NCBI GenBank assembly: GCA_019119845.1
Contig: DWWF01000002.1
Coordinates: 13,374-77,373, forward strand
Source of the DNA: Candidatus Alistipes merdavium
Lineage (GTDB): Bacteria > Bacteroidota > Bacteroidia > Bacteroidales > Rikenellaceae
Direction: 5' to 3'
Length of the DNA: 64,000 nucleotides
The position numbers were made by a program, and so were the translations under genes. Below are positions 38,000 to 63,086 of the stretch, in pieces. The notes beneath the pieces are model-generated. The model had not been told where the DNA came from, did no database searches, and saw only the letters and a program-made list of their open reading frames with translations. Within the stretch, counting starts at the first letter, position 1, and each line of letters opens with the position of its first letter.

Positions 38000-39946
38000 A
38001 TGGCTTTCAAATTAGATGCTAAAATTCCTGCCGGCGCTCTCGCAGACAAGTGGAGCAACCACAAGGCAGCTATCAAGGTCGTAAGCCCCGCCAACAAGCG
38101 CAAACTCGACATCATCGTCGTCGGAACCGGTCTGGGCGGCGCCTCCGCAGCCGCTTCGCTGGGCGAGCTGGGCTACAACGTCAAGGTCTTCTGCATCCAG
38201 GATTCGCCCCGCCGCGCCCACTCGATCGCCGCGCAGGGTGGTATCAACGCCGCGAAGAACTACCAGAACGACAACGACTCCGTATACCGTCTCTTCTACG
38301 ATACGATCAAGGGCGGCGACTACCGCGCCCGCGAGGCCAACGTCTACCGCCTGGCCGAGGTCTCGAACCTCATCATCGACCAGTGCGTAGCCCAGGGCGT
38401 ACCCTTCGCCCGCGAGTATGGCGGTCTGCTGGCCAACCGTTCGTTCGGCGGTGCACAGGTATCGCGTACCTTCTATGCCCGCGGCCAGACGGGACAGCAG
38501 CTCCTGCTGGGTGCCTACGCCGCACTGAACAAGGAGATCGCCGCCGGCTCGGTCAAGAGCTACCCGCGCCACGAGATGCTCGACATCGTCATCGAGGACG
38601 GCGAGGCCCGCGGTATCATCGCGCGCAACCTCGTCACGGGTGAGATCGAGCGCCACGGCGCCCACGCCGTCGTGCTGGCCACGGGCGGCTACGGCAACGT
38701 CTTCTTCCTCTCGACGAACGCCATGGCCTCGAACGGCTCGGCCGCATTCCAGTGCTACCGCAAGGGTGCCGGCTTCGCCAACCCCTGCTTCACGCAGATC
38801 CACCCGACGTGTATCCCCGTACACGGCGACCAGCAGTCGAAGCTGACCCTCATGTCGGAGTCGCTGCGCAACGACGGCCGCATCTGGGTTCCCAAGAAGC
38901 TCGAGGACGTGAAGGCGCTGCGCGCCGGCACCAAGAAGCCGTCGGACATCGCCGAGGAGGACCGCGACTACTATCTGGAGCGCCGCTACCCGGCCTTCGG
39001 AAACCTCGTGCCGCGTGACGTCGCCTCGCGTGCCGCCAAGGAGCGCTGCGACGCCGGCTACGGCGTGAACGAGACGGGTCTGGCCGTCTTCCTCGACTTC
39101 AAGACCGCCATCGAGCGTCTGGGCAAGGACATCATCAAGCAGCGTTACGGCAACCTCTTCGACATGTACGAGGAGATCACCGACGTGAGCCCCTACGAGC
39201 AGCCGATGCAGATCTTCCCGGCCGTGCACTACACGATGGGCGGTCTGTGGGTCGACTACAACCTGATGACCACGATCCCGGGTCTGTACGCCATCGGCGA
39301 GGCCAACTTCTCGGATCACGGTGCCAACCGTCTGGGTGCCTCGGCCCTGATGCAGGGTCTGGCCGACGGTTACTTCGTCCTGCCCTACACGATCGGCGAC
39401 TACCTCTCGCACAAGATCCAGGCTCCGAAGGTGAAGACCGACACCAAGGCCTTCGACGAGGCCGAGAAGGCCGTGCGCGAGAAGATCGCCAAGCTCTTCG
39501 CCATCAAGGGCAAGCAGTCCGTGGACGACATCCACAAGAAGCTCGGCCACATCATGTGGGAGAACGTCGGCATGGCCCGCACGAAGGCATCCCTCGAGAA
39601 GGCCATCACCGAGATTCAGGCCCTGCGCAAGGAGTTCTGGAAGGACGTGAAGGTTGTAGGCCGCGAAAACGACTTCAATGTCGAGCTCGAAAAGGCAATC
39701 CGTCTGGCCGACTTCCTCGAGCTGGGCGAGCTGATGGCCCGCGACGCACTCCACCGCGAAGAGTCGTGCGGCGGTCACTTCCGCTCGGAGCACCAGACCG
39801 AGGAGGGCGAGGCCAAGCGTGACGACGAAAACTTCGTATATGCCGCCGTCTGGGAGTACAAGGGCATGGACCAGGTTCCCGAGATGACCAAGGAGCCGCT
39901 GAACTTCGAGTTCGTACACCCGGCACAGCGCAACTACAAGGATTAA
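38000..39946 (+). CDS. sdhA: Succinate dehydrogenase/fumarate reductase flavoprotein subunit
   Basis: [45 protein letters not shown]. Confidence 0.96.
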
Positions 39947-49347: not shown

Positions 49348-50092
49348 CCCCGACTTGGTTCCGATGGCGGGAAAGCGGCCGGAGGGCTGAAAGCGACAGC
49401 GGCGGGGACGGTTTGCTTGCAAACCCGCGCAGTCGCCCGACGCCGCCTTCAGTCCTCCGGACGCCGACATCGGAATCGGTCGGGTGGCTTTTGCTGCTTT
49501 TCGCCACCGAAAAGCAGTTAAAATAAAAAAGAGTTTTTCATGTACTTTTGGGGCCAAAAGTACCAAAAGCCTCCGCACGTCGTTTTCCGCGGGAGTGCGC
49601 GAACCGCGGCGCTGCACGGGGCGCGCAAGATCAAGCCTATGCGCTACCCCGTGACGAACGCGCCGCAGCCCGCACCCTCTTTCTCCGCGTCAAACGAGAG
49701 TGCGGATTCGTGGTGCCGCCAACGGCGGCATTATTTATATGGCAATGCGCTTCGGATGCCCGTATCAACTTACTTTTTCTGAAATCTCCACCCGGTAGTG
49801 CGTTTCTTTTGGTTTCCCGCAAGGCGGGTCCCGATTTGGTTCCGATGGCGAGAAAGCGGACGGAGGGCTGAAAGCGACAGCGGCGGGGACGGTTTGCTTG
49901 CAAACCCGCGAATAGTCGCCCGACGCCGCTTTCAGTCCTCCGGACGCCGACATCGGAATCGGTCGGGTGGCTTTTGCTGCTTTTCGCCACCGAAAAGCAG
50001 AGAAAAAAGTTTTTTCAGACGTTTTCTCCGGAAGCCGAAAAAGGACGTCGAGAGGCTTTTTGCTGCTTCTCGCCACCGAAAACAAAAAAAAG
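49348..50092 (-). repeat. Structured modular repeat array, locus 2 (partial unit 50092-49815, linker, full unit 49730-49348)
   Basis: Reverse complement of the element at 3942-4415 and 56365-57350. Confidence 0.95.
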
Positions 50093-50135
50093 CCCCCAGA
50101 CAATCAACAAAGAATACTATCCTGCCGCAAGGCTC

Positions 50136-51114: not shown

Positions 51115-53298
51115 ATGACTATGCACAAACTCCTACGCCACAGCCTGCTGACCCTCACGGCGCTGCTGACGGCCGCGCTGGCCGCCGCGCAGAGCGTCAC
51201 GTGGAAAAGCAGCGTGGAGCCGCTCGGCGGCGACGCCTACCGCATCGTGCTGGAGGCCGCCATCCCCGCAGGCTACCACATGTACGACATGGGGCCCTAC
51301 GAGGGCGGTCCGACCGCCACGACCATCGTCCTGACGCCGGGCGAGGGCGTTCAACTCGACGGGCCGGTCGAGCAGCTTACGAAAGCCCACACCTACTACG
51401 ACGAACTGTTCGGAATGCAGATCGGCACCCTCTCGGGCAAGCCGCGCTTCGCACAGAAGGTGCACCTCGCCACGGCAAAGGGCACCGTCACGGCCCAGCT
51501 CGAATGGATGATCTGCAACGATTCGAGCTGCATGCCGCCCGACGAAACGGAGCTGACCATCGAGATTGCCGCCTCCGCCGCACCGGCCGCACCGGCCAAG
51601 GGTGAAGCGGTCCAGAGCGCACCGGCCGCAACGACGCCCGTCAAGACAACCCCGGCCAAAGCGGAAACTACCCCCGCAGCCGCGACGGCACAGACGGCGG
51701 AATCCGCCGTGCAGGAGCCTGCACAGGAGGCTGCTCCGGCGACTGTCGCACCGGCCGGGGAGCAAACGGAGCCGGCCGCCGAGGCCGCACCGGTCAAGGA
51801 TGCCGCCGGCAGCAAGGGGCTCTGGGCCCTGATTATCGAGGCGATCCTCTGGGGCTTCGCCGCCCTGCTGACCCCATGCGTCTTCCCGATGGTGCCGATG
51901 ACCGTCTCGTACTTCCTCAAGGGGGAGGGCGGTGCCGCCATGGGACGCCTGCGCGCCTCGCTCTACGGGCTCTTCATCGTGCTGCTCTACACGGTGCCCA
52001 TCGCCGCCATCATCCTCATCACGCGCATCGTGGGCGGTGACGCCGTGACGGCCGATATCTTCAACTGGCTCGCCACGCACTGGCTGCCCAACATCATCTT
52101 CTTCCTCGTCTTCATGATCTTTGCCGCCTCGTTCTTCGGGGCGTTCGAGATCACCATGCCCTCGTGGATGGTCAACAAGACCGACTCGAAGGCCGATACG
52201 AAAGGCATCGGCGGCATCTTCTTCCTGGCCCTGACCCTCGTGCTCGTCTCGTTCTCCTGCACGGGACCGATCGTCGGATCGGTGCTCATCAAGTCCACCT
52301 CGGGCGAGTTCTGGACACCGATCATCACCATGCTGGCCTTCTCCGTAGCCTTCGCCCTGCCGTTCACCCTCTTCGCGCTCTTCCCCTCGGTGCTGAAGAA
52401 GCTTCCGAAGAGCGGCGGATGGCTCAACTCCGTGAAGGTGGTCATCGGCTTCATCGAGGTGGCCCTCGGCATGAAGTTCCTCTCCGTGGCCGACCAGACC
52501 TACCACTGGGGACTGCTCGACCGAGAGGTCTACCTGGCCGTCTGGATCGTCGTCTTCGCGCTGCTGGGCTTCTACCTGCTGGGCAAGATCAAGTTCGCGC
52601 ACGACAGCGACCTGCCCTACGTGGGTGTCGGACGCCTCACGCTGGCCATCATCGTCTTCTCGTTCGTCGTCTACATGATCCCCGGCATGTGGGGCGCCCC
52701 GCTCAAGGCCCTCTCGGGCTACCTGCCGCCGCTCACGACGCAGGACTTCGTCCTCGGGCAGCACACCGCCGCCGTCTCGGCCGGCACGTCGGCGAGCGGA
52801 AGCCACACCCTGCTGACCGTGGAGGGGAAGCAGCCCAAGTACAGCGACTTCCTCCACCTGCCGCACGGGCTCGAGGGCTTCTTCGACCTCAAGGAGGCCG
52901 AGGCCTACGCCGTAAAGGTCGGCAAGCCGCTCTTCATCGACTTCACGGGCCACGGCTGCGTCAACTGCCGCGAAATGGAGGCCCGCGTATGGTCCGACCC
53001 GCAGGTGCTCGACATCCTGCGCAACGACTACGTGATCTGCGCGCTCTATTCGGACGACAAGAAGGTGCTGCCCGAGAGCGAATGGGTCACCACCGACGCC
53101 GGCAAGGTCCTCAAGGGGCTCGGCAAGATCAACTCCTACTACGCACTGAAGACCTACGGCGTGAATGCCCAGCCCTACTACGTGCTGCAGGGAGCAGACG
53201 GACGGCCGCTTGTCGCACCGCGCGGCTACGACCTCTCGGTCGAGGGCTTCGTCGAGTTCCTCCAAAGCGGACTGGCAGCCTACAAGCAGCAGAAATAA
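51115..53298 (+). CDS. dsbD: Protein-disulfide reductase DsbD family
   Basis: N-terminal Ig-like domain with CNDSSC, Ala/Pro linker, TM domain with LTPCVFPM and SCTGP, thioredoxin GCVNC. Confidence 0.9.
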   Translation: MTMHKLLRHSLLTLTALLTAALAAAQSVTWKSSVEPLGGDAYRIVLEAAIPAGYHMYDMGPYEGGPTATTIVLTPGEGVQLDGPVEQLTKAHTYYDELFGMQIGTLSGKPRFAQKVHLATAKGTVTAQLEWMICNDSSCMPPDETELTIEIAASAAPAAPAKGEAVQSAPAATTPVKTTPAKAETTPAAATAQTAESAVQEPAQEAAPATVAPAGEQTEPAAEAAPVKDAAGSKGLWALIIEAILWGFAALLTPCVFPMVPMTVSYFLKGEGGAAMGRLRASLYGLFIVLLYTVPIAAIILITRIVGGDAVTADIFNWLATHWLPNIIFFLVFMIFAASFFGAFEITMPSWMVNKTDSKADTKGIGGIFFLALTLVLVSFSCTGPIVGSVLIKSTSGEFWTPIITMLAFSVAFALPFTLFALFPSVLKKLPKSGGWLNSVKVVIGFIEVALGMKFLSVADQTYHWGLLDREVYLAVWIVVFALLGFYLLGKIKFAHDSDLPYVGVGRLTLAIIVFSFVVYMIPGMWGAPLKALSGYLPPLTTQDFVLGQHTAAVSAGTSASGSHTLLTVEGKQPKYSDFLHLPHGLEGFFDLKEAEAYAVKVGKPLFIDFTGHGCVNCREMEARVWSDPQVLDILRNDYVICALYSDDKKVLPESEWVTTDAGKVLKGLGKINSYYALKTYGVNAQPYYVLQGADGRPLVAPRGYDLSVEGFVEFLQSGLAAYKQQK

Positions 53299-53356: not shown

Positions 53357-53449
53357 CGTATATTTGCCATGCGCGCCCCGACTCGCCGCCGACCGCGGAG
53401 CATACGCCCGCAAGGCAGGCATCCCGACGCAGAGAAAAACCGACCGAAA

Positions 53450-55228
53450 ATGAAGAGATCCTATCTTTGGCTCCTGTGCCTCGCACTGGCAGGCGCATGC
53501 AGCGGATGCACGGAGACCTATCCGACCTACTCCACGGAATACAACCTGGATTTCGAGTACGCCCTAAACGACAGCGTGCCGGCGCAATGGACGCTGCGCA
53601 ACACGTCGCTCACCGGATACGAGTATGCGCTCGACCGGCAGACCGTGCACCACGGTGCGGCGAGCCTTCGGGCCCGATGGAGCGAACGGATAACCCTGCC
53701 GGGCAGCTGGGGCGGATTCCAGACCTTCCTCTCCGCCGGGCAGGCCGCAGGGCGGGAGGTCGAGATCAGCGGCTGGATCAAAACCCGCGACAGCGTGAAC
53801 CTGCGTGCCGGATTCGGCATTTTCCCCTTCGTGCCCGACCGTACCCCGATGGATTTTCTGTCGCGGATCGACACGACGGGCGGTGTCCGGGGCACCTCCG
53901 ACTGGAGGCGCTGCACGACCCGGATGAAGATCGACAGCGCCGCGACCTGCATCATGATCGCCGGCTTTGCCTCGGGTGTGGGGAGCGTCTGGTTCGACGA
54001 TCTGGAGATCCGCATCGACGGCAAACGAATCGCCGAACGGGAGATTCCGCTCGTCGACAAACTGTCGCCCGCCGACCGGCAGGCGCTGCTGCGCTATGTC
54101 CATCCGTTCGCGACCTGGGACCCGACGGCTCCGGACACGGACGACCTCGACGCCCTCGGACAGGCGGCGACCGGATGCCGGATCGTCGGGCTGGGTGAGA
54201 ACACGCACGACACCGGCGAGGTGTTTGCCATGAAGGACCGCATAGTCCGCTACCTGACAGACCGCCACGGATTCGGCATCTTCGCGCTGGAGGCCAATCT
54301 GCCCGAGGCAGAGCGGGTAAACGACTACACGATCCGCGGGGAGGGCGACCCGAAACAGCTGATCCGGGGGATGTACGTCTGGCCCTGGATGACCGACGAG
54401 ATGCTGACGATGGTCGAGTGGATGAAGACCGTCAACACGCCGGAGCCCCGCATCACCTTCACGGGGGTCGATCTGCAGATGCCCACCACGCTGATGGCTG
54501 CGTTGCAGCGGCTGCTGCCCGCATCGGGATCGGCCGCACGCCGGGCTGCCGCGCTGGCGGAGCAGCTGCAACATATTTACACCCGATCCTACCAACTGGA
54601 TGTCGAACTGGCCCGGAAACTCGAACCCGAGCTGGATGCGCTGGCCGCCGACAGCGACCTGGCATCGCTGTCCGGGGAGAAACGCACCGAGATCGGAGGA
54701 TACATCGACATGCTGCGCGCCTTTCTGAGCCAGTACCGCGACCCTTCGTGGCGGGACCGGGGCATGGCCGGGACCATGGCGTGGATCATGGCCCTCCACC
54801 CGGAGTCGCGGGCGGTTCTCTGGGCACACAACCAGCACATCAACCAGCGCGAGGGAACGACAAGGCTGATTCGTCCGACCGGATACTACCTCAAGCAGCA
54901 ATTCGGGGACGGCTACCTCTCCGTCGGCTTCGTAACCGGCCAGGGCACCTATACGGCCTGGAAAAACGGTCTCCGGGCCTTTGAACTCCCGGTTCCGGCA
55001 CCCGGCACGCTGGAGCATGTGCTCGGACAACTCGACGAGCCGATCTTCCTGCTCAACCTGAAACGGATGCGGCAGGAGCAGGCGCCCCAGCTGCAATGGC
55101 TCGACGCGCTGTCGTTCCGCGAGATCGGCGCCACGCCCGAGGTATTCTACTACACGGGCATCTCCGAAGCGTTCGACTGTCTGATCTTTATCCGAAACAC
55201 CTCGGCTTCGCACCTGCTGCAATTCTGA
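53450..55228 (+). CDS. Erythromycin-esterase (Ere/Bcr136)-family lipoprotein with N-terminal galactose-binding-like domain
   Basis: Lipobox; VGLGENTH, FALEAN, FTGVD, RD.GMA, WAHNQH motifs. Confidence 0.82.
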   Translation: MKRSYLWLLCLALAGACSGCTETYPTYSTEYNLDFEYALNDSVPAQWTLRNTSLTGYEYALDRQTVHHGAASLRARWSERITLPGSWGGFQTFLSAGQAAGREVEISGWIKTRDSVNLRAGFGIFPFVPDRTPMDFLSRIDTTGGVRGTSDWRRCTTRMKIDSAATCIMIAGFASGVGSVWFDDLEIRIDGKRIAEREIPLVDKLSPADRQALLRYVHPFATWDPTAPDTDDLDALGQAATGCRIVGLGENTHDTGEVFAMKDRIVRYLTDRHGFGIFALEANLPEAERVNDYTIRGEGDPKQLIRGMYVWPWMTDEMLTMVEWMKTVNTPEPRITFTGVDLQMPTTLMAALQRLLPASGSAARRAAALAEQLQHIYTRSYQLDVELARKLEPELDALAADSDLASLSGEKRTEIGGYIDMLRAFLSQYRDPSWRDRGMAGTMAWIMALHPESRAVLWAHNQHINQREGTTRLIRPTGYYLKQQFGDGYLSVGFVTGQGTYTAWKNGLRAFELPVPAPGTLEHVLGQLDEPIFLLNLKRMRQEQAPQLQWLDALSFREIGATPEVFYYTGISEAFDCLIFIRNTSASHLLQF

Positions 55229-55961: not shown

Positions 55962-56046
55962 AACGGGTTGTTTTAGGTTGGAACATACTGTGAACACCCG
56001 GCGGCCGGGTGTGACTTTCCGAAAATCTCGCGAACATTCAGTTCTG

Positions 56047-57485
56047 AAAAACTTTTTTCTCTGCTTTTCAGCGGCGAAAAGCAGCAAAAGCCCCCGAAGT
56101 CCTTTCCTCTTTTCAGAAAAGTGCCAAAAAACTTTTTTCCCTGCTTTTCGGTGGCGAAAAGCAGCAAAAGCCACCCGACCGATTCCGATGTCGACGTCCG
56201 GACGCCTGAAAGCGGCGTCGGGCGACTGCGCGGGTTTGCAAGCAAACCGTCCCCGCCGCTCTCGCTTTCAGCCCTCCGGCCGCTCTTTCGCCATCGGAAC
56301 CAAGTCGGGACCCGCCATGCGGGAAAAAAGAGTGCCGGAGCGCATGCCATATAAATTATTATACTGCCGCCTCCGGCGGCACAGTAATTCCGCACTCTCG
56401 TTCGACGCGGAAAAAAGAGGGTACGACACGCGGCGCGTCCGTCACGGGGTGGCGCTAAGGCCTGATCTTGCGCGCCCCGTGCAGCGCCGCGGCTCGCGCA
56501 CTCCCGCGGAGAACGACGTGCGGAGGCTTTTGGTACTTTTGGCCCCAAAAGTACATGAGAAAACTTTTTCTTTTTCTCTGCTTTTCGGCGGCGAAAAGCA
56601 GCAAAAGCCACCCGACCGATTCCGATGTCGGCGTCCGGACGCCTGAAAGCGGCGTCGGGCGACTGCGCGGGTTTGCAAGCAAACCGTCCCCGCCGCTCGC
56701 GCTTTCAGCCCTCCGGCCGCTCTTTCGCCATCGGAACCAAGTCGGGAATCACCTTGCGGAAAAAAATGGAGTTGCGAGGGTGGTTGGTTTTGCGAAACAA
56801 AAGTGACACGCAGCCGGAGGCGGGCAGGAAAAGTAAGCTGGAACGGGCTTCCGAGGCGCATTGCCATGTAAAATAAACAATGCCGCCGTTGGCGGCACCA
56901 CCAATCCGCACTCTCGTTTGACGCGGAAAAAGAGAGGGCGGGCTGCGGCGCGTCCGCCACGGGGTGGCGCATAGGCTTGATCTTGCGCGCCCCGTGCAGC
57001 GCCGCGGATCGCACGCTCCCGCGGAAAACGACGTGCGGAGGCTTTTGGTACTTTTGGCCCCAAAAGTACACGAGAAAACTTTTTCTTTTTCTCTGCTTTT
57101 CGGTGGCGAAAAGCAGCAAAAAACCTCTCGAAGTCCTTTTGCAGCTTCCGGAAAAACTCTTTTTTCTCTGCTTTTCGGTAGCGAAAAGCAGCAAAAGCCA
57201 CCCGACCGATTCCGATGTCGACGTCCGGACGCCTGAAAGCGGCGTCGGGCGACTGCGCGGGTTTGCAAGCAAACCGTCCCCGCCGCTCTCGCTTTCAGCC
57301 CTCCGTCCGCTCTTTCGCTATCGGAACCAAGTCGGGGATCGCCTTGCGGGGTAAAAAATAAAGCACACGTTACCGAAACGTATTTGTCTTTATTTATCCT
57401 TTGCCGCCCGTGGCGGCACCACAAATCCGCACTCCCGCGGAGAACGACGTGCGGAGGCTTTTGGTACTTTTGACCCCAAAAGTAC
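56047..57485 (+). repeat. Structured modular repeat array, locus 3 (partial unit 56061-56323, full units 56365-56760 and 56881-57350, internally deleted unit 57402-57485)
   Basis: Direct repeats visible in the sequence; same module order as loci 1 and 2. Confidence 0.97.
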
Positions 57486-57626
57486 AAGGGAAAAATACAT
57501 GGAACCTGCCGTTTTCAAAGATACGCACATCGAAACAAAAATCCAACTCTCGGGGCAGGAAAAGGGCGCGGCACGGGCCGGGGAGCAGAACAAAAAAAGC
57601 GGACGACTTTTTCAAGACGTCCGCTG

Positions 57627-57702
57627 TGGTAGCGGGGGGAGGACTCGAACCTCCGACCTCCGGGTTATGAGCCCGACGAGCTGCCAACTGCTCTACCCCG
57701 CG
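57627..57702 (-). tRNA. Initiator tRNA-Met(CAT)
   Basis: CGCGGGGTAGAGCAGTTGGCAGCTCGTCGGGCTCATAACCCGGAGGTCGGAGGTTCGAGTCCTCCCCCCGCTACCA; C1:A72 mismatch, GGG/CCC anticodon stem, encoded CCA; -7 box at about 57757-57764. Confidence 0.97.
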
Positions 57703-58092: not shown

Positions 58093-59874
58093 CTACGAGA
58101 GGTGCGAGGCGACGATCTCGGCCAGGTCGCGCACCTCTCCCTTCGTACCGCGGCCGATGGCCTTCTTGCAGAGGGGGCAGGCCGTGACGATCACCTCGGC
58201 ACCTGTCGCCTCCAGCTCCTCGGCCACCGCACGGGCGATCTGCACCTGCTGGCCGTCCGAGATGGCCGTATTGGCCACCGACGAGCCGCAGCAGAGGGCA
58301 TGCTCGCGCGTCTGTGCCGGTTCGAGCAGCTCACCCACGGCCTCGATCACGGCACGCGGCTCGTCGTAGATGCCGCTGCCGCGCCCCAGCTCGCAGGGAT
58401 CGTGGTAGGTATAGTGCGTCGTGCCGCGCTGGAGGTTGAGCCGTTCGGCACGGATCAGCCGCAGGATGTATTCCGAGTGGTGCAGCACTTCGATGCCCGG
58501 CAGGTCGTAATCCTCGCGAAAAACCTTCAGGCAGATCGGGCACGAGGTCACGAGCGTCGTGATGCCGTGCTTGAGGAAGAGCTCCGTGTTGTAGCGCATC
58601 ATCTTGTGCGCCGAGTCGGTCTCGCCAGCGAGCTTCAGCGGACGCCCGCAGCAGACGCCCCCCTCGCGGTCGGCCCACCAGACCTCCTCGCCCGCGGCGT
58701 CGAACAGGCGCTCCATGGCCGACATCGTGCGGGGCGTGAGCAGGGTCATACACCCGGCAAAGTAGCCCACCTTGCCCGTGCCGGAGGAGCGGTCCAGTCC
58801 CTTGAAGTAGTCGTAGCGCCGCTCGTCGGGGACGTTGCGCAGGCGGTCGCGCGAGTTGATGCGCAGCGTATTGAGGTCGATGCCCACGGGGCAGCGCTCG
58901 GCACAGCGGCCGCACAGCAGGCAGTTGTCCGCCACGTCGCGCCGCAGCATGCCGTAGCGGCGGTCACGCAGGAAATAGACCGACTGCACGTTGTCGACAT
59001 GCAGGACGCTCTGCAGCTGGCAGGGGTCGATGCAGATGCCGCAGCGCGAGCAGGCCTCGACCTGGAAATGGTCGTAGGCACTCTCCTTCTCGCCCGAACG
59101 CAGGCCGTAGCGGCGCAGGAAGATGAGCGGGATCTCCGTGAAGATGTGCATGTAGCGCGAGAAGGGCAGCGCCACGAAGAACAGCCCGAGGCACGACGAA
59201 TAGAACCACCAGGCGGCGGTCTCGAGGTTCATGAGCGCCAACACGGAGATGTGCTCGTGCATCCACCCGCCGAGCGAACCCGTCAGGAAGCTGCCGCCGC
59301 CGTAGAGCGCGCAGGTCGTGCTCTCGGCCAGCAGGCGCGCCGGGAAGATGAACCACAGCGCCGTGAGGGCCACGCGGTCGCCCGGCACGTGCTTCGTCGT
59401 GCGCCGCATGCCCATGGCCCTCGACCAGAAGCGCTTGCCCCAGGCGAGCGCCACGCCCGAGAGGACGAAGAGCAGCAGCAGGTCCATGACGAAATCGAAG
59501 CCGGGCTTGTGTTCGAGGCCCGTGGCGAAGTACTTGAAGAAGACGTGCCCCTGCAGCGGCACGAAGCGCAGCCCGAGGTAGGCGACGGTCTCGGTCCACC
59601 CCACGGCGATGAGCAGGAACCAGCCGAAGGCCAGCGACATGTGCATGTAGCCCAGCAGTGGGTTGACACGGAAGATGCGGCGGTGCAGCAGCGACTCGCG
59701 CACCACCTCCCACAGGGCCTCCAACGTGCGTCGCGTGGGCAGACCGCGCAGGATCAGCCGCTTGTCGGCACGGGGCAGCCGGTAGAGCCACGAGCCCCAC
59801 TTCCAGAGCAGCGTCGCAAACATCACGGCGGCGCCGATGATGAACGGCAGGCAGAACGGTGCGTAGAATGTCAT
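58093..59874 (-). CDS. Membrane cytochrome b (NarI/HdrE-like) fused to 2x[4Fe-4S] and CCG domains (HdrD-like)
   Basis: TM helices with YMH...FG and PFSRYMH His motifs; CSRCGICIDPC and CLLCGRCAERC; CCG, CPIC, YHDPC, CCG, ACPLC. Confidence 0.85.
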   Translation of the reverse strand: MTFYAPFCLPFIIGAAVMFATLLWKWGSWLYRLPRADKRLILRGLPTRRTLEALWEVVRESLLHRRIFRVNPLLGYMHMSLAFGWFLLIAVGWTETVAYLGLRFVPLQGHVFFKYFATGLEHKPGFDFVMDLLLLFVLSGVALAWGKRFWSRAMGMRRTTKHVPGDRVALTALWFIFPARLLAESTTCALYGGGSFLTGSLGGWMHEHISVLALMNLETAAWWFYSSCLGLFFVALPFSRYMHIFTEIPLIFLRRYGLRSGEKESAYDHFQVEACSRCGICIDPCQLQSVLHVDNVQSVYFLRDRRYGMLRRDVADNCLLCGRCAERCPVGIDLNTLRINSRDRLRNVPDERRYDYFKGLDRSSGTGKVGYFAGCMTLLTPRTMSAMERLFDAAGEEVWWADREGGVCCGRPLKLAGETDSAHKMMRYNTELFLKHGITTLVTSCPICLKVFREDYDLPGIEVLHHSEYILRLIRAERLNLQRGTTHYTYHDPCELGRGSGIYDEPRAVIEAVGELLEPAQTREHALCCGSSVANTAISDGQQVQIARAVAEELEATGAEVIVTACPLCKKAIGRGTKGEVRDLAEIVASHLS

Positions 59875-59875
59875 C

Positions 59876-60211
59876 TCAGAAGTCCCCCAGTTTACGTTTT
59901 ATGAGCATCACGACGCCGCGCGTGTTGATGCCGCGCGGGCAGACCAGCCGGCACTTGCCGCAGAGCATGCACTTGTTCATCTCCTCGTAGGCCCCCTGGT
60001 ACTCGCCGCGCCGCACGAGCGTATGCACGCGGCGGAAGTTGAACGACGTGAGGTTGCCCGCCGTGCAGACGGCCGTGCAGGCCCCGCAGCCGATGCAGGT
60101 CTGCAGCTCGGGCATCTCGCGCAGGATCTCGTCGCTCTTGCGCAGGTTGTTGCGGTCCATGTCGATGGCCCGGGGCTTGGAGATCGTATATCCGAAATTG
60201 ATCGCTGCCAT
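59876..60211 (-). CDS. Small 2x[4Fe-4S] protein (HdrC-like)
   Basis: MAAINFGY...CIGCGACTAVC...CMLCGKCRLVCP. Confidence 0.88.
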   Translation of the reverse strand: MAAINFGYTISKPRAIDMDRNNLRKSDEILREMPELQTCIGCGACTAVCTAGNLTSFNFRRVHTLVRRGEYQGAYEEMNKCMLCGKCRLVCPRGINTRGVVMLIKRKLGDF

Positions 60212-60213
60212 CG

Positions 60214-61224
60214 CTATGCTCCGAGGTATTGCGCCGCGGCGTCGGCCGCCGCAACGGCTTCGTTCAACGTCTCGCCGATGGTCTTCGGCGCGGTGACGGT
60301 CCCGGCATAGAAGATGCCGTCGACGTCGCTGCACACGTTGTTCAGGAAGAGGTCGCGCGGCGCGAAGAAGCCGCTCGGCGCGCGCCGCAGCCCCGCCCCC
60401 TCGGCCAGGGCGGCGTTCTCGTCGTTGGCCCGCATGCCCACGAGCAGGATCAGCATGTCGACGCTCATGCGCAGCGGACGTCCCGTGAGCGTATCCTCGG
60501 CCTTGATCTGCACGCGGCCGTCGATCGTGGGGCTCGCCTCCGAGATGCGGCCGCGCACGAAGTGGATGTTGCAGCGCTGCTGCGCCTCGCGGTACATCTC
60601 CTCGTAACCGGGGCCGAACATGCGGATGTCCATGTAGAAGTTGAAGACGTCGGCCTCGGGGAAGAGCCGCTTGAGCTCCATGGCCTGTTTGACGCCCGTG
60701 ATGCAGCACACCTTCGAGCAGTGCTGCTGGCACACCTTCTCGTCGCGCGAGCCGACGCAGTGCAGCAGCGCGATGCGCTTCGGGCGCGATCCGTCGGCCT
60801 TCGCCACGCGCCCCTCGCCCAGCATGCGCTCGATGTCGACCGAGGTGAAGACGTTGTCGTAGATGCCGTATCCGTACTCCTCCTTGATGCGGGCGTCGAA
60901 GAGCGTGAAGCCCGAGGCGAGCACCACGGCGTCGCACGCGAGCGTCCGCCCGTCGGCGAGCCTTACGCTCCGCGCGTCGAAGCCCCGCACCTCGGTCGAG
61001 GTCAGCACCTCGATCCCCCGCTCGCGGACACGCTGACGCAGCTGCGTCAGCACCTCCGCCGCGGGCGTAAAGGAGGGGAAGAGCACATACCAGTTCCGGA
61101 GCTTGCCGCCCAGTTCCGCCTCGCGCTCCACGATGACGGGCTCCACGCCCTGCTCGGCCAGGCGCAGGGCCGTCTGCATGCCTGCCGCACCGCCGCCTAT
61201 GACAATCACTCGTTTCTTCATCAC
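60214..61224 (-). CDS. hdrA: Heterodisulfide reductase subunit A-like flavoprotein (short form)
   Basis: GGGAAG FAD motif, YGYG.Y.NV.T..D.E, HCVGSR...CSKVCC, FYMDIR..G..YEE, GT..APK.I. Confidence 0.85.
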   Translation of the reverse strand: MMKKRVIVIGGGAAGMQTALRLAEQGVEPVIVEREAELGGKLRNWYVLFPSFTPAAEVLTQLRQRVRERGIEVLTSTEVRGFDARSVRLADGRTLACDAVVLASGFTLFDARIKEEYGYGIYDNVFTSVDIERMLGEGRVAKADGSRPKRIALLHCVGSRDEKVCQQHCSKVCCITGVKQAMELKRLFPEADVFNFYMDIRMFGPGYEEMYREAQQRCNIHFVRGRISEASPTIDGRVQIKAEDTLTGRPLRMSVDMLILLVGMRANDENAALAEGAGLRRAPSGFFAPRDLFLNNVCSDVDGIFYAGTVTAPKTIGETLNEAVAAADAAAQYLGA

Positions 61225-62306
61225 TCTCTTATGTCGTAAATCATCTCCGACGGGCAGTTGACCACCGCCGACTCGGGTTTGCCGATATATTTTCCGTTGC
61301 GGCCCAGGTACTTGGCCGCGGGGTCGTAGTCGATGCCCATCTTGTCGAGCAGCGGCTCGACGTCGACCTGGTGCATCTGCATGCCCAGCACCCAGGGGTC
61401 ATAGCCCAGCACCAGGCCGGCCATCTCCTCGTAGGTCAGCACCGGGATGCCGTGGCCGTTCTCGCCGTAGGTCGTCCCCTCCATCTCGGCGATGGCATAC
61501 TGCCACTTGTCGAGGAACATCGCGCAGCCCGGGCAGTTGGCCACGATGAAGTCGGGCTTGTAGGGGGCCATGCTCTCGAGCTTCTTGTGCGAGTTGGCGA
61601 TCGAGTAGCCGCGGTTGGCCTGCACGAGGTAGTTGCGGAAGCCGAAGCCGCAGCAGTGCCGCCGCTCGGGATAGTCCACGCACTCGCCGCCCCACGACTC
61701 GACCATGCCGGCCAGCACGTAGGGGAACTCCGAGCCCCCGATGCCCGATTTCGGGAATATCTTGGCATAGTGGCAGCCGATGTGCTCGACGACACGCAGC
61801 GGCTCGCCCGTCACGGCGTTGACCAGCCGGTGGCGGGCCTTCGCGGCGATCGCGTCGCGGAAGTGGAAGACCACGTCCGACGTGTGGGCCAGGCTTGCGG
61901 GCTTGCGGAACTCGCGTCCGGTGGCCTTGTAGAGGTTTTCGCGCGTGCGCTCCTCGGTCTCGGGGAACTCCGCCCACGTGGCCAGCACCTCGGTGTAGAT
62001 GCCGAACGAGGTGATGCACGAGGTGACGAAATTCTCGTAGCCCGCCTCGTTCATCAGCGAGAACTGCCGCGCCACGACCGTCATGATCGTCTCCAGCGGC
62101 ACGATGTCCGAGTGGTAGCCGATGCCCGTGCACGACGAATGCTTCGGATCGTCCAGAATATCGCGGCCCAGGTCGTTCTGCAGCATATCGATGAAGAACT
62201 TTTCGCTGCCCGGAAAGAAGTTCTGGCGGATGCAGCTGCGCGCATAGTAGTATCGGTCGTCGGCAATCTGTTTCTGATACTCCTGCCAACTGTTACGCTT
62301 CATCAT
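61221..62306 (-). CDS. hdrB: Heterodisulfide reductase subunit B-like
   Basis: CCG domains: SC..., SCTG, SCITS, HIGCH, CCGFG, ANCPGC...LD. Confidence 0.85.
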   Translation of the reverse strand: MMKRNSWQEYQKQIADDRYYYARSCIRQNFFPGSEKFFIDMLQNDLGRDILDDPKHSSCTGIGYHSDIVPLETIMTVVARQFSLMNEAGYENFVTSCITSFGIYTEVLATWAEFPETEERTRENLYKATGREFRKPASLAHTSDVVFHFRDAIAAKARHRLVNAVTGEPLRVVEHIGCHYAKIFPKSGIGGSEFPYVLAGMVESWGGECVDYPERRHCCGFGFRNYLVQANRGYSIANSHKKLESMAPYKPDFIVANCPGCAMFLDKWQYAIAEMEGTTYGENGHGIPVLTYEEMAGLVLGYDPWVLGMQMHQVDVEPLLDKMGIDYDPAAKYLGRNGKYIGKPESAVVNCPSEMIYDIRE

Positions 62307-62311
62307 AGGGT

Positions 62312-63010
62312 TCAATAGTGTTCGTTGCTGTTGTTGAGAAAGACATCCATCATGTAGCGATGGTCGGCCCCCTGCTCGTAGCCCATCTCGCGGGCCTTGC
62401 GGTCGGAGTGGCGCTCGATGGTCTCGAACAGCTCGCTGCCGCCGCTCACCTCGAAGATGCGGTTGATCTCCGAGAGCGACTCCTCGTCGAGGCGGCGCAA
62501 CGCCCCGGCGCCGTGGCGCATGTAGGAAGGGGTGAACTGCCCGTAGACCTCGCGGTCGTTGTCGTAGATCCACTTCCAGACGGTCCCCTGCTCGGGATGC
62601 AGCTCGGGCTTGACGAGCCGCGGCACGATGCAGTAGCCCGTGCGGAGGATGTTCTCGCCGATGATGCGCTTGAGGGCCAGCTGCTGCCGTCCCTTCTCGC
62701 TCTCGACGAAGAAGCCCAGCTTCTGCGAGAGCGTGCGCAGCGCCTGGATCACGTAGCCGGGCGTATTGCCCCGCGGGCAGCGCGGACGGCACGACATGCA
62801 CTCGCCGCAATACCAGATCGTGTCGCTCTTGAGCAGCTCCTCGATGGCCTCGTCGTCGCGCGACTGCACCGTGCAGACGATCTGGCGGGGGTCGTAGTTG
62901 TAGAACTCGGCCGCCGGACAGACGCCCGTGCAGACACCGCAGTTCATGCAGGCGTTCAGCCCCTCGCGGCAGCGGACGTCCTCCATCAGCATATCGAAAT
63001 ACTTTCCCAT
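62312..63010 (-). CDS. hdrC: Heterodisulfide reductase subunit C-like
   Basis: CMNCGVCTGVCP, YDPRQI, IWYCGECMSCRPRCP. Confidence 0.88.
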   Translation of the reverse strand: MGKYFDMLMEDVRCREGLNACMNCGVCTGVCPAAEFYNYDPRQIVCTVQSRDDEAIEELLKSDTIWYCGECMSCRPRCPRGNTPGYVIQALRTLSQKLGFFVESEKGRQQLALKRIIGENILRTGYCIVPRLVKPELHPEQGTVWKWIYDNDREVYGQFTPSYMRHGAGALRRLDEESLSEINRIFEVSGGSELFETIERHSDRKAREMGYEQGADHRYMMDVFLNNSNEHY

Positions 63011-63086
63011 ACGGATACAAAAAAACCTTTGCCGATGCAAAGGTAGGGATTCCCGCCGGGTCGTGCGGTGGTATAAATGCGTAATT

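Follow-up and report, generated by a model that had tools for sequence, protein, structure and literature searches.

A widespread sHdr-like complex with a one-heme membrane subunit in Bacteroidales, a candidate sulfite source for sulfonolipid-building Alistipes

What does a heterodisulfide reductase (Hdr)-like complex do in a fermentative gut bacterium? The question is raised by a five-gene operon at positions 58093-63010 (minus strand) of a 64,000-nucleotide stretch of Candidatus Alistipes merdavium DNA (contig DWWF01000002.1, positions 13,374 to 77,373; hereafter, the window). An earlier note, made from the sequence alone, had taken it for an uncharacterised menaquinone-linked oxidoreductase. 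The operon is indeed uncharacterised, and we found its closest relative, which that note had missed together with a link to sulfite, in the sHdr system of sulfur oxidisers. The Hdr operon is a real and widespread sHdr variant that has the sHdr catalytic core, lacks the carriers that define sHdr, and ends in a one-heme membrane subunit. At a probability of about 0.5, we favour the explanation that the complex oxidises sulfane sulfur to sulfite with menaquinone as the acceptor and, in Alistipes, feeds cysteate synthase.

A conserved five-gene complex of the sHdr type

All five minus-strand open reading frames (ORFs) are intact: hdrC1 (62312-63010, 232 residues), hdrB1 (61221-62306, 361 residues), hdrA (60214-61221, 335 residues from ATG, or 336 from GTG at 61224), the gene for a 111-residue protein, C2 (59876-60211), and the membrane subunit gene (58093-59874, 593 residues). 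In this order, the junctions are a 5-nucleotide (nt) gap, a 1-nt overlap, a 2-nt gap, and a 1-nt gap. The GC content at third codon positions (0.91-0.93) is similar to that of the adjoining folA. Pfam and NCBIfam concur on the domains of the five proteins, none of which reached an Hdr equivalog cut-off of NCBIfam.

We identified HdrB1 homologues (E <= 1e-40), mostly 60-70% identical, in 147 of 401 Bacteroidales genomes and 98 of 227 genera, a count that takes in orphan C1-B1 pairs. The order C1-B-A-C2-membrane was kept in 128 of 149 loci. Of the other 21, five were orphan C1-B pairs, two were operons rearranged to C1-C2-membrane-B-A, two were B-A pairs, one had C1-B next to a larger HdrA, and the rest were cut off at a contig edge. 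The whole cluster is also present in Candidatus Altiarchaeales, at 35-44% identity. A phylum-wide search, whose draw held just 7 Bacteroidales, placed the close HdrB1 clade in Bacteroidales only, the remaining matches being distant CCG proteins; a search with the membrane subunit returned close Alistipes proteins only. Among 50 loci of many families, no substrate-defining neighbour occurred in more than 5, apart from the synthase link described below. These observations bear out a real, conserved Hdr-like complex with a quinone-facing membrane subunit and rule out a pseudogene confined to this strain. The module is not confined to Alistipes.

Several loci (numbered L; genomes are numbered G and contigs C) show additional arrangements. 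In the Altiarchaeal locus L265:8854-14958, the full cluster includes a NifB/NifX-like insert and an additional ferredoxin of 65 residues; a duplicate of the C-B pair lies upstream of it, and nitrogenase-like (PF00148) genes follow downstream. Orphan second hdrC1-hdrB1 pairs, with neither hdrA nor the membrane gene, were observed at L186, L189, L192, L193, and L200. Their neighbours are methionine gamma-lyase-like, NifB/NifX-like, DUF134-like, and TonB receptor genes, and four of the five pairs form, together with L190, one weakly supported clade. Cysteine-dioxygenase-like cupin genes lie between hdrB1 and hdrA in two families (L274:2735-3289, L162:9356-9904, and L165:9399-9947). In this genome (G000 contig C28, L270:3457-4014) and in G004, a cupin homologue (42% identical) lies two genes upstream of the gene for cysteate synthase; it was not found there in G011, G023, or G024.

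HdrA had been described as a truncated protein of about 336 residues with FAD and CSxxCC motifs and no ferredoxin motifs. Inspection of the ORF confirmed these features, and the short form proved to be the natural sHdrA architecture: residues 3-329 align end to end with the 349-residue sHdrA of Hyphomicrobium denitrificans (6TJR; E 2e-59), and the length stays at 332-360 residues across 126 loci, never with a ferredoxin motif. A frameshift or pseudogene truncation was rejected on these grounds. Besides the FAD motif, HdrA carries one [4Fe-4S] ligand set (C155, C168, C172, and C173; CSxxCC at 168-173). Its E131 and K178, invariant in 43 of 43 homologues, are equivalent to E356 and K409 of methanogen HdrA, a pair that marks bifurcating HdrA (PMC12054007, PMC9430772). 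At the position of K178, sHdrA has Asn.

HdrC1 contains two CxxCxxCxxxC motifs in a Fer4_8 domain. Its best NCBIfam match was HdrC (87.6 bits, below the cut-off), its eight motif cysteines and C127 are invariant among 47 homologues, and it is 40% identical to one sHdrC1 across 93 residues. By sequence, it is an sHdrC1-like protein with two predicted cubane [4Fe-4S] clusters.

An alignment of HdrB1 with HdrB (5ODC/9SFI) revealed a complete proximal CCG site (C178-H179, C218, C219, C258, and C261). The distal site is degenerate (C25, S58-C59, and C97-x-x-S100), with Ser/Thr at the C41 and C81 equivalents, which leaves three of five cysteines in the N-terminal CCG domain. A protein whose neighbouring genes (radical SAM, lipoate ligase, dsrE, and hdrC) verify it as an sHdrB1 has the same degenerate pattern, including the S/T-C and C-x-T-S motifs. 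In a quick tree with this single verified sHdrB1 and a long branch, the Bacteroidales and Altiarchaeal B1 clade was sister to the clade holding the verified protein (SH-aLRT 98). HdrB1 is likely the catalytic subunit. The proposal of two CCG catalytic subunits is uncertain, since HdrB1 belongs to the sHdrB1 type and the CCG domain of the membrane subunit may be a wire.

The 111-residue protein, which has two CxxCxxCxxxC motifs, had been proposed to replace the ferredoxin domain of HdrA. Its best NCBIfam match identified it as HdrC-type, and in the rearranged operons its gene stays with the membrane gene, apart from hdrA in L195 and L288; a split-off C-terminal ferredoxin of HdrA was therefore rejected. 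In a complex model, the protein sits on the CCG domain of the membrane subunit (residues 375-418 and 531-571) with a score of 0.72, compared with 0.01 for the best of three controls; the runs agree in at least 87% of contacts, and the partner pLDDT (predicted local distance difference test) is at least 76. The mark applied to such models is attained by 58 of 80 solved pairs and 2 of 110 mismatched pairs, and the pass might reflect likeness to solved HdrB-HdrC structures. C2 is thus probably an HdrC2-like adaptor between HdrA and the membrane subunit, as far as the model indicates.

The 593-residue chain combines a NarI/HdrE-like helical membrane domain, two [4Fe-4S] sites, and two CCG domains. 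Its AlphaFold2 model (pLDDT 92.7) matched best to EtfD (9OJN; TM score 0.71) of Mycobacterium smegmatis, an electron transfer flavoprotein (ETF):menaquinone oxidoreductase (EMO; PMC13083937) that is also known from S. aciditrophicus (SaEMO; bioRxiv 10.64898/2026.08.18.745454). Both proteins carry all these domains in one chain, and the invariant H78 and H243 align with the EtfD heme bP ligands H78 and H241 (PMC13083937). In EMO/EtfD, a His blocks the proximal non-cubane cluster and the distal cluster lacks one cysteine, whereas all 10 CCG cysteines and I447 are invariant here in 50 homologues, with no blocking His. Furthermore, an invariant Tyr occupies position 225, where EMO-like domains have the distal-heme His, so that one cytoplasm-side heme b is predicted and no reverse redox loop of the SaEMO type. 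The proposed quinone-facing cytochrome b/Fe-S/CCG fusion is thereby retained, with ligands for one heme rather than two. Unlike EMO/EtfD, which is partnered by ETF and linked to beta-oxidation, the Alistipes subunit has no beta-oxidation context and appears to be partnered by C2 on its CCG face. EtfAB is encoded elsewhere in the genome.

Linkage to cysteate synthase and sulfite

The sHdr system oxidises sulfane sulfur to sulfite (PMC11094781), and cysteate is formed from phosphoserine and sulfite (PMC13692747) on the way to the Alistipes sulfonolipids, which act on TLR4 and are associated with inflammatory bowel disease (PMC11525784). This genome (G000, 92% complete) encodes a cysteate synthase above the cut-off and a SulA/CapB-like acyltransferase; adenosine 5'-phosphosulfate (APS) reductase and CysD were not found in it. 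Among 24 sampled Alistipes relatives, APS reductase was detected in one, and that copy has stops.

In other genomes, the two systems are physically joined. Cysteate synthase directly follows the Hdr operon in L096 and L201 (one family). In L195, L284, and L288 (three families), the operon is preceded by genes for an acyltransferase, a divergent synthase homologue, and, often, a short-chain dehydrogenase/reductase (SDR), and in L344 (a fifth family) the divergent synthase follows the operon. In all, five Bacteroidales families have the Hdr operon in one gene string with either cysteate synthase or the divergent homologue. In L345, from an Hdr-negative genome, an APS/PAPS (3'-phosphoadenosine 5'-phosphosulfate) reductase gene stands between the acyltransferase and the synthase. 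The divergent homologues form a threonine-synthase-fold family (L195:16853-18070 and L290-L327) that is about 25% identical to TIGR03844 and below its cut-off; a search of 271 genomes found it in 59, where its gene is often flanked by those for an aminoacyl-transferase and an SDR. From this gene context, the family is a candidate and probably a second type of cysteate synthase.

When both synthase types were taken together and the genomes were divided post hoc by cysH, those without cysH encoded a synthase in 35 of 46 cases when Hdr-positive and in 14 of 102 when Hdr-negative (by families, 18/9/11/35). Among cysH-positive genomes, synthase was present in 38 of 101 Hdr-positive and at least 81 of 152 Hdr-negative ones. 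Either cysH or synthase was found in 136 of 147 Hdr-positive versus 166 of 254 Hdr-negative genomes, and neither in 11 of 147 versus 88 of 254. Hdr and synthase were jointly present or absent among members of four families, three of which retain synthase after Hdr loss. In the Alistipes draw, 23 of 24 genomes had synthase and 15 of 24 had Hdr. The Bacteroidales cysH genes themselves are mostly orphans (L347-L366): of 20 loci, only 4 had cysD/cysN within 8 kb, and 6 had an mnmA-like gene.

Related degenerate sites are also present in archaeal HdrC-HdrB fusions, which lie next to cysteate synthase in L259/L260, directly before it in L259, and, in L264, beside marker 16, comA, comB, and comDE-like genes. 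The product of comA likewise requires sulfite, and these fusions are a possible sulfite source for coenzyme M synthesis. Another relative (L266) adjoins a gene resembling sulfide:quinone oxidoreductase. Within an incomplete coverage of the literature, we found no report on the sulfite source of Alistipes sulfonolipids or on this operon, and the papers on SulA and on a Methanosarcina acetivorans hdrABC mutant do not mention sulfite.

Proposed reaction and its alternatives

We propose that the five proteins assemble into a membrane-anchored sHdr-like complex, probably C1-B1-A/A'-C2-Mem, with the HdrE/HdrD-type fusion standing in for the soluble B2 of sulfur oxidisers. The sHdrB1-type subunit would turn sulfane sulfur, as a persulfide on some carrier, into sulfite. 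Electrons would pass from B1 through C1, the HdrA dimer, and C2 to the membrane subunit, where two non-cubane clusters, two cubane clusters, and then one cytoplasm-side heme b would carry them on to menaquinone. The stoichiometry predicted for sHdr, AA'C1B1C2B2 (PMC11094781), together with the C2-membrane model, suggests such a wire (B1-C1-A/A'-C2-CCG-FeS-heme-quinone). Fumarate reductase or cytochrome bd would then re-oxidise the menaquinol. In Alistipes, where cysteate synthase is present without APS reductase, the sulfite would pass through cysteate to sulfonolipid; elsewhere in the Bacteroidales, this sulfite/sulfane-sulfur chemistry may be put to other uses.

The gene inventory of this genome makes the quinone and its sinks plausible, with MenA, fumarate reductase, and cytochrome bd all present. 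A fumarate reductase/succinate dehydrogenase flavoprotein gene lies at about 38111-39937 of the window, and the cytochrome bd gene (G000:C1:84727-86250) lies about 8 kb upstream of the Hdr operon. MqnC of the futalosine pathway was not above cut-off, and MenB and MenD motifs were not found in the genome; with MenA present, menaquinone is probably made from an imported precursor. SufS-like and tryptophanase genes are potential providers of persulfide or sulfide. The sulfur/sulfite couple lies near -38 mV and the sulfide/sulfite couple near -116 mV. With menaquinone at -74 mV (PMC10734219), the reaction would be near equilibrium, and its direction could differ by lineage.

Several observations weigh against this explanation. 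The sHdr carriers LbpA, TusA, DsrE, and rhodanese were not found in this genome or in two Hdr-positive relatives that are 98% (G023) and 99% (G024) complete; specifically, TusA, DsrE, and rhodanese were not found in G000 or G024, nor DsrE and rhodanese in G023, and in G004 and G011 these occur solely as domains of one long fusion protein. Across 50 loci, sHdrH, lbpA, lipoylation genes, and etfAB were absent as cluster neighbours. In this genome, the Hdr operon and cysteate synthase are on different contigs. The raw association between Hdr and cysteate synthase is weak and not significant (odds ratio 1.5, p 0.06, 401 genomes); an association emerges solely when the genomes are split by cysH and the divergent synthase is counted in. 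Kinship among the genomes also means that such p-values overstate. The marker cysH is an imperfect proxy, mostly lacking cysDN nearby, the HdrB1-based count includes orphan pairs, and the assignment of the second synthase type is limited to gene context. HdrA retains the Lys of bifurcating HdrA, which sHdrA does not. Finally, 74 of the 147 Hdr-positive genomes have neither synthase type, and eight Alistipes metagenome-assembled genomes (79-91% complete) have synthase and neither Hdr nor cysH, so that the complex is neither obligatory for nor dedicated to sulfonolipids.

The Hdr-positive genomes without synthase, half of the total, are compatible with a reductive enzyme, in which menaquinol electrons travel the heme/FeS wire to reduce a disulfide, persulfide, or polysulfide at the CCG site(s), as in HdrDE, for sulfur respiration or thiol recycling. 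The membrane subunit keeps the 10 CCG cysteines and lacks the substrate-site-blocking His of EMO/EtfD, as a catalytic HdrD would, and a dsbD-like gene is near the cluster in 13 Alistipes loci. Ordinary disulfides have potentials of about -200 mV or lower, and their reduction from menaquinone at -74 mV would be uphill, with no distal heme ligand through which the proton gradient could be harnessed as SaEMO does. A reductive role would also leave unexplained the sHdrB1-type site and the repeated linkage to sulfite-consuming enzymes, and we regard it as unlikely.

A second alternative is that the chemistry runs mainly in reverse or for housekeeping, in which case sulfite from APS reductase or the gut is reduced to sulfane sulfur or sulfide for siroheme-free assimilation or detoxification, the sulfonolipid link being a lineage-specific side use. 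Among synthase-less genomes, Hdr is present in 63 of 113-134 cysH-positive and 11 of 99 cysH-negative ones, and in G345 the operon is divergent from cysH and adjoins cysND. A siroheme sulfite-reductase motif was not seen in 20 cysH loci, which is uninformative on whole genomes. Alistipes, however, has Hdr without cysH, and a sulfite consumer inside a cysteate synthase operon would compete for the substrate; we consider this direction quite improbable as the general function.

The invariant E131/K178 pair of HdrA, which marks bifurcation, raises a third alternative: the FAD could couple a two-electron donor, such as dihydrolipoyl-GcvH, to menaquinone on one side and to the C1-B1 arm on the other, with no net sulfur oxidation, making the complex a bifurcating or lipoyl/ETF-linked hub. 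GcvH and EtfAB are present in all five genomes tested, GcvH as a single copy away from the Hdr cluster (a canonical one in this genome), and the membrane subunit resembles EtfD. Nevertheless, HdrA has no ferredoxin-binding insert, no cluster has a donor gene, and mvhD, already noted as missing from the cluster, was not found in this genome or four relatives. In addition, etfAB lies on contig C25 beside an acyl-CoA dehydrogenase-like gene, and the modelled C2 fills the CCG face where ETF docks in SaEMO. Such a hub is very unlikely in our estimation. A degraded cluster or a lactate/glycolate-type dehydrogenase can practically be dismissed, given the intact genes, invariant ligands, 60-70% HdrB identity over 98 genera, and order kept in 128 loci, together with membrane-subunit scores far below the family cut-offs (LdhH 99.8 bits against 800, GlcF 41 against 333), reached via common CCG domains, and a separate lutABC-like cluster on contig C8.

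Returning to sulfite formation, C1-B1(-A) with the degenerate distal CCG site might be an ancient, oxygen-independent sulfite maker that operates without LbpA, TusA, or DsrE. It would have been used for energy in sHdr, in a menaquinone-wired, one-heme form for Bacteroidales sulfonolipids, and as related archaeal C-B fusions for coenzyme M. We offer this broader proposal tentatively and consider it rather doubtful.

Surroundings, known relatives, and significance

The Hdr operon probably has its own promoter. A Bacteroidota-type -7 box (TAnnTTTG; TACCTTTG) lies at 63038-63045 on the minus strand, 27 nt upstream of hdrC1, and 111 of 132 loci, many of them close kin, have TAnnTTTG in the 250 nt that precede hdrC1, compared with a mean of 14 (maximum 23) in shuffles. 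No Crp/Fnr-type palindromes were found upstream of hdrC1 in these 132 loci. Downstream of the operon, a DsbD-like thiol:disulfide interchange gene is encoded on the opposite strand (51115-53298, about 5 kb away), an association observed only in the 13 close Alistipes loci. A 619-residue lipoprotein-like ORF (53369-55228) resembles the erythromycin-esterase family by eye, no family search having been run. Imperfect repeats of about 200 nt form an intergenic array (56040-57494 and 50042-50097) downstream of tRNA-Met (57627-57702); three copies are 92-94% identical, accompanied by shorter pieces, with kin copies at nine places on contigs C1, C4, and C8.

The complex falls outside type I and II sHdr, EMO, HdrDE, and bifurcating HdrABC. 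Type I sHdr (shdrC1B1AHC2B2 with LbpA, TusA, and DsrE) occurs in sulfur oxidisers such as Hyphomicrobium denitrificans (PMC11094781, PMC6067878). It shares with the Alistipes cluster the C1-B1-A...C2 order, a short HdrA with one [4Fe-4S] cluster, a second HdrC, a B1 of the sister clade with the degenerate distal site, and a B2-like pair of CCG domains that could hold two non-cubane clusters. Unlike type I, the Alistipes cluster lacks sHdrH (the hdrA-C2 gap is 2 nt), LbpA, lipoylation genes, and sulfur transferases. It has no separate soluble sHdrB2 either: the B2-like part is fused to its own two [4Fe-4S] sites and to a membrane domain for heme b. A Lys in HdrA takes the place of the Asn of sHdrA, and the hosts live as fermentative anaerobes rather than lithotrophs. 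Type II sHdr (shdrC1B1AHB3-etfAB-emo), in which electrons are proposed to reach menaquinone via EtfAB and EMO (PMC11094781), likewise has a C1-B1-A core followed by an EMO-like membrane protein. The cluster here differs in lacking sHdrH, the B3 fusion, etfAB, and lbpA and in having C2 as a free gene. With this C2 modelled directly on the membrane subunit, ETF would be unnecessary.

The subunits are also homologous to those of methanogen HdrABC-MvhAGD and HdrDE, with E356/K409 equivalents and an HdrE-HdrD-like membrane fusion. In contrast to the methanogen proteins, HdrA is half the size, without ferredoxin domains or MvhD, and HdrB1 lacks the C41 and C81 equivalents of the 10 cysteines that hold two non-cubane clusters in HdrB. 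HdrDE has a distal heme His beside the proximal pair, whereas the Alistipes subunit has the invariant Tyr225 and one heme. All NCBIfam cut-offs are missed by the five proteins.

About a third of the sampled Bacteroidales carry the Hdr module. As a naturally stripped-down, membrane-coupled sHdr without lipoate carriers, it could help to settle the role of sHdrB1, and the complex is a knock-out target in the cultured A. putredinis DSM 17216, A. timonensis DSM 25383, and A. muris DSM 112343. The first step of sulfonolipid synthesis needs sulfite (PMC13692747), yet APS reductase is nearly absent from the sampled Alistipes relatives. For Alistipes that build sulfonolipids, the complex is the best candidate, as yet unproven, for the source of that sulfite.

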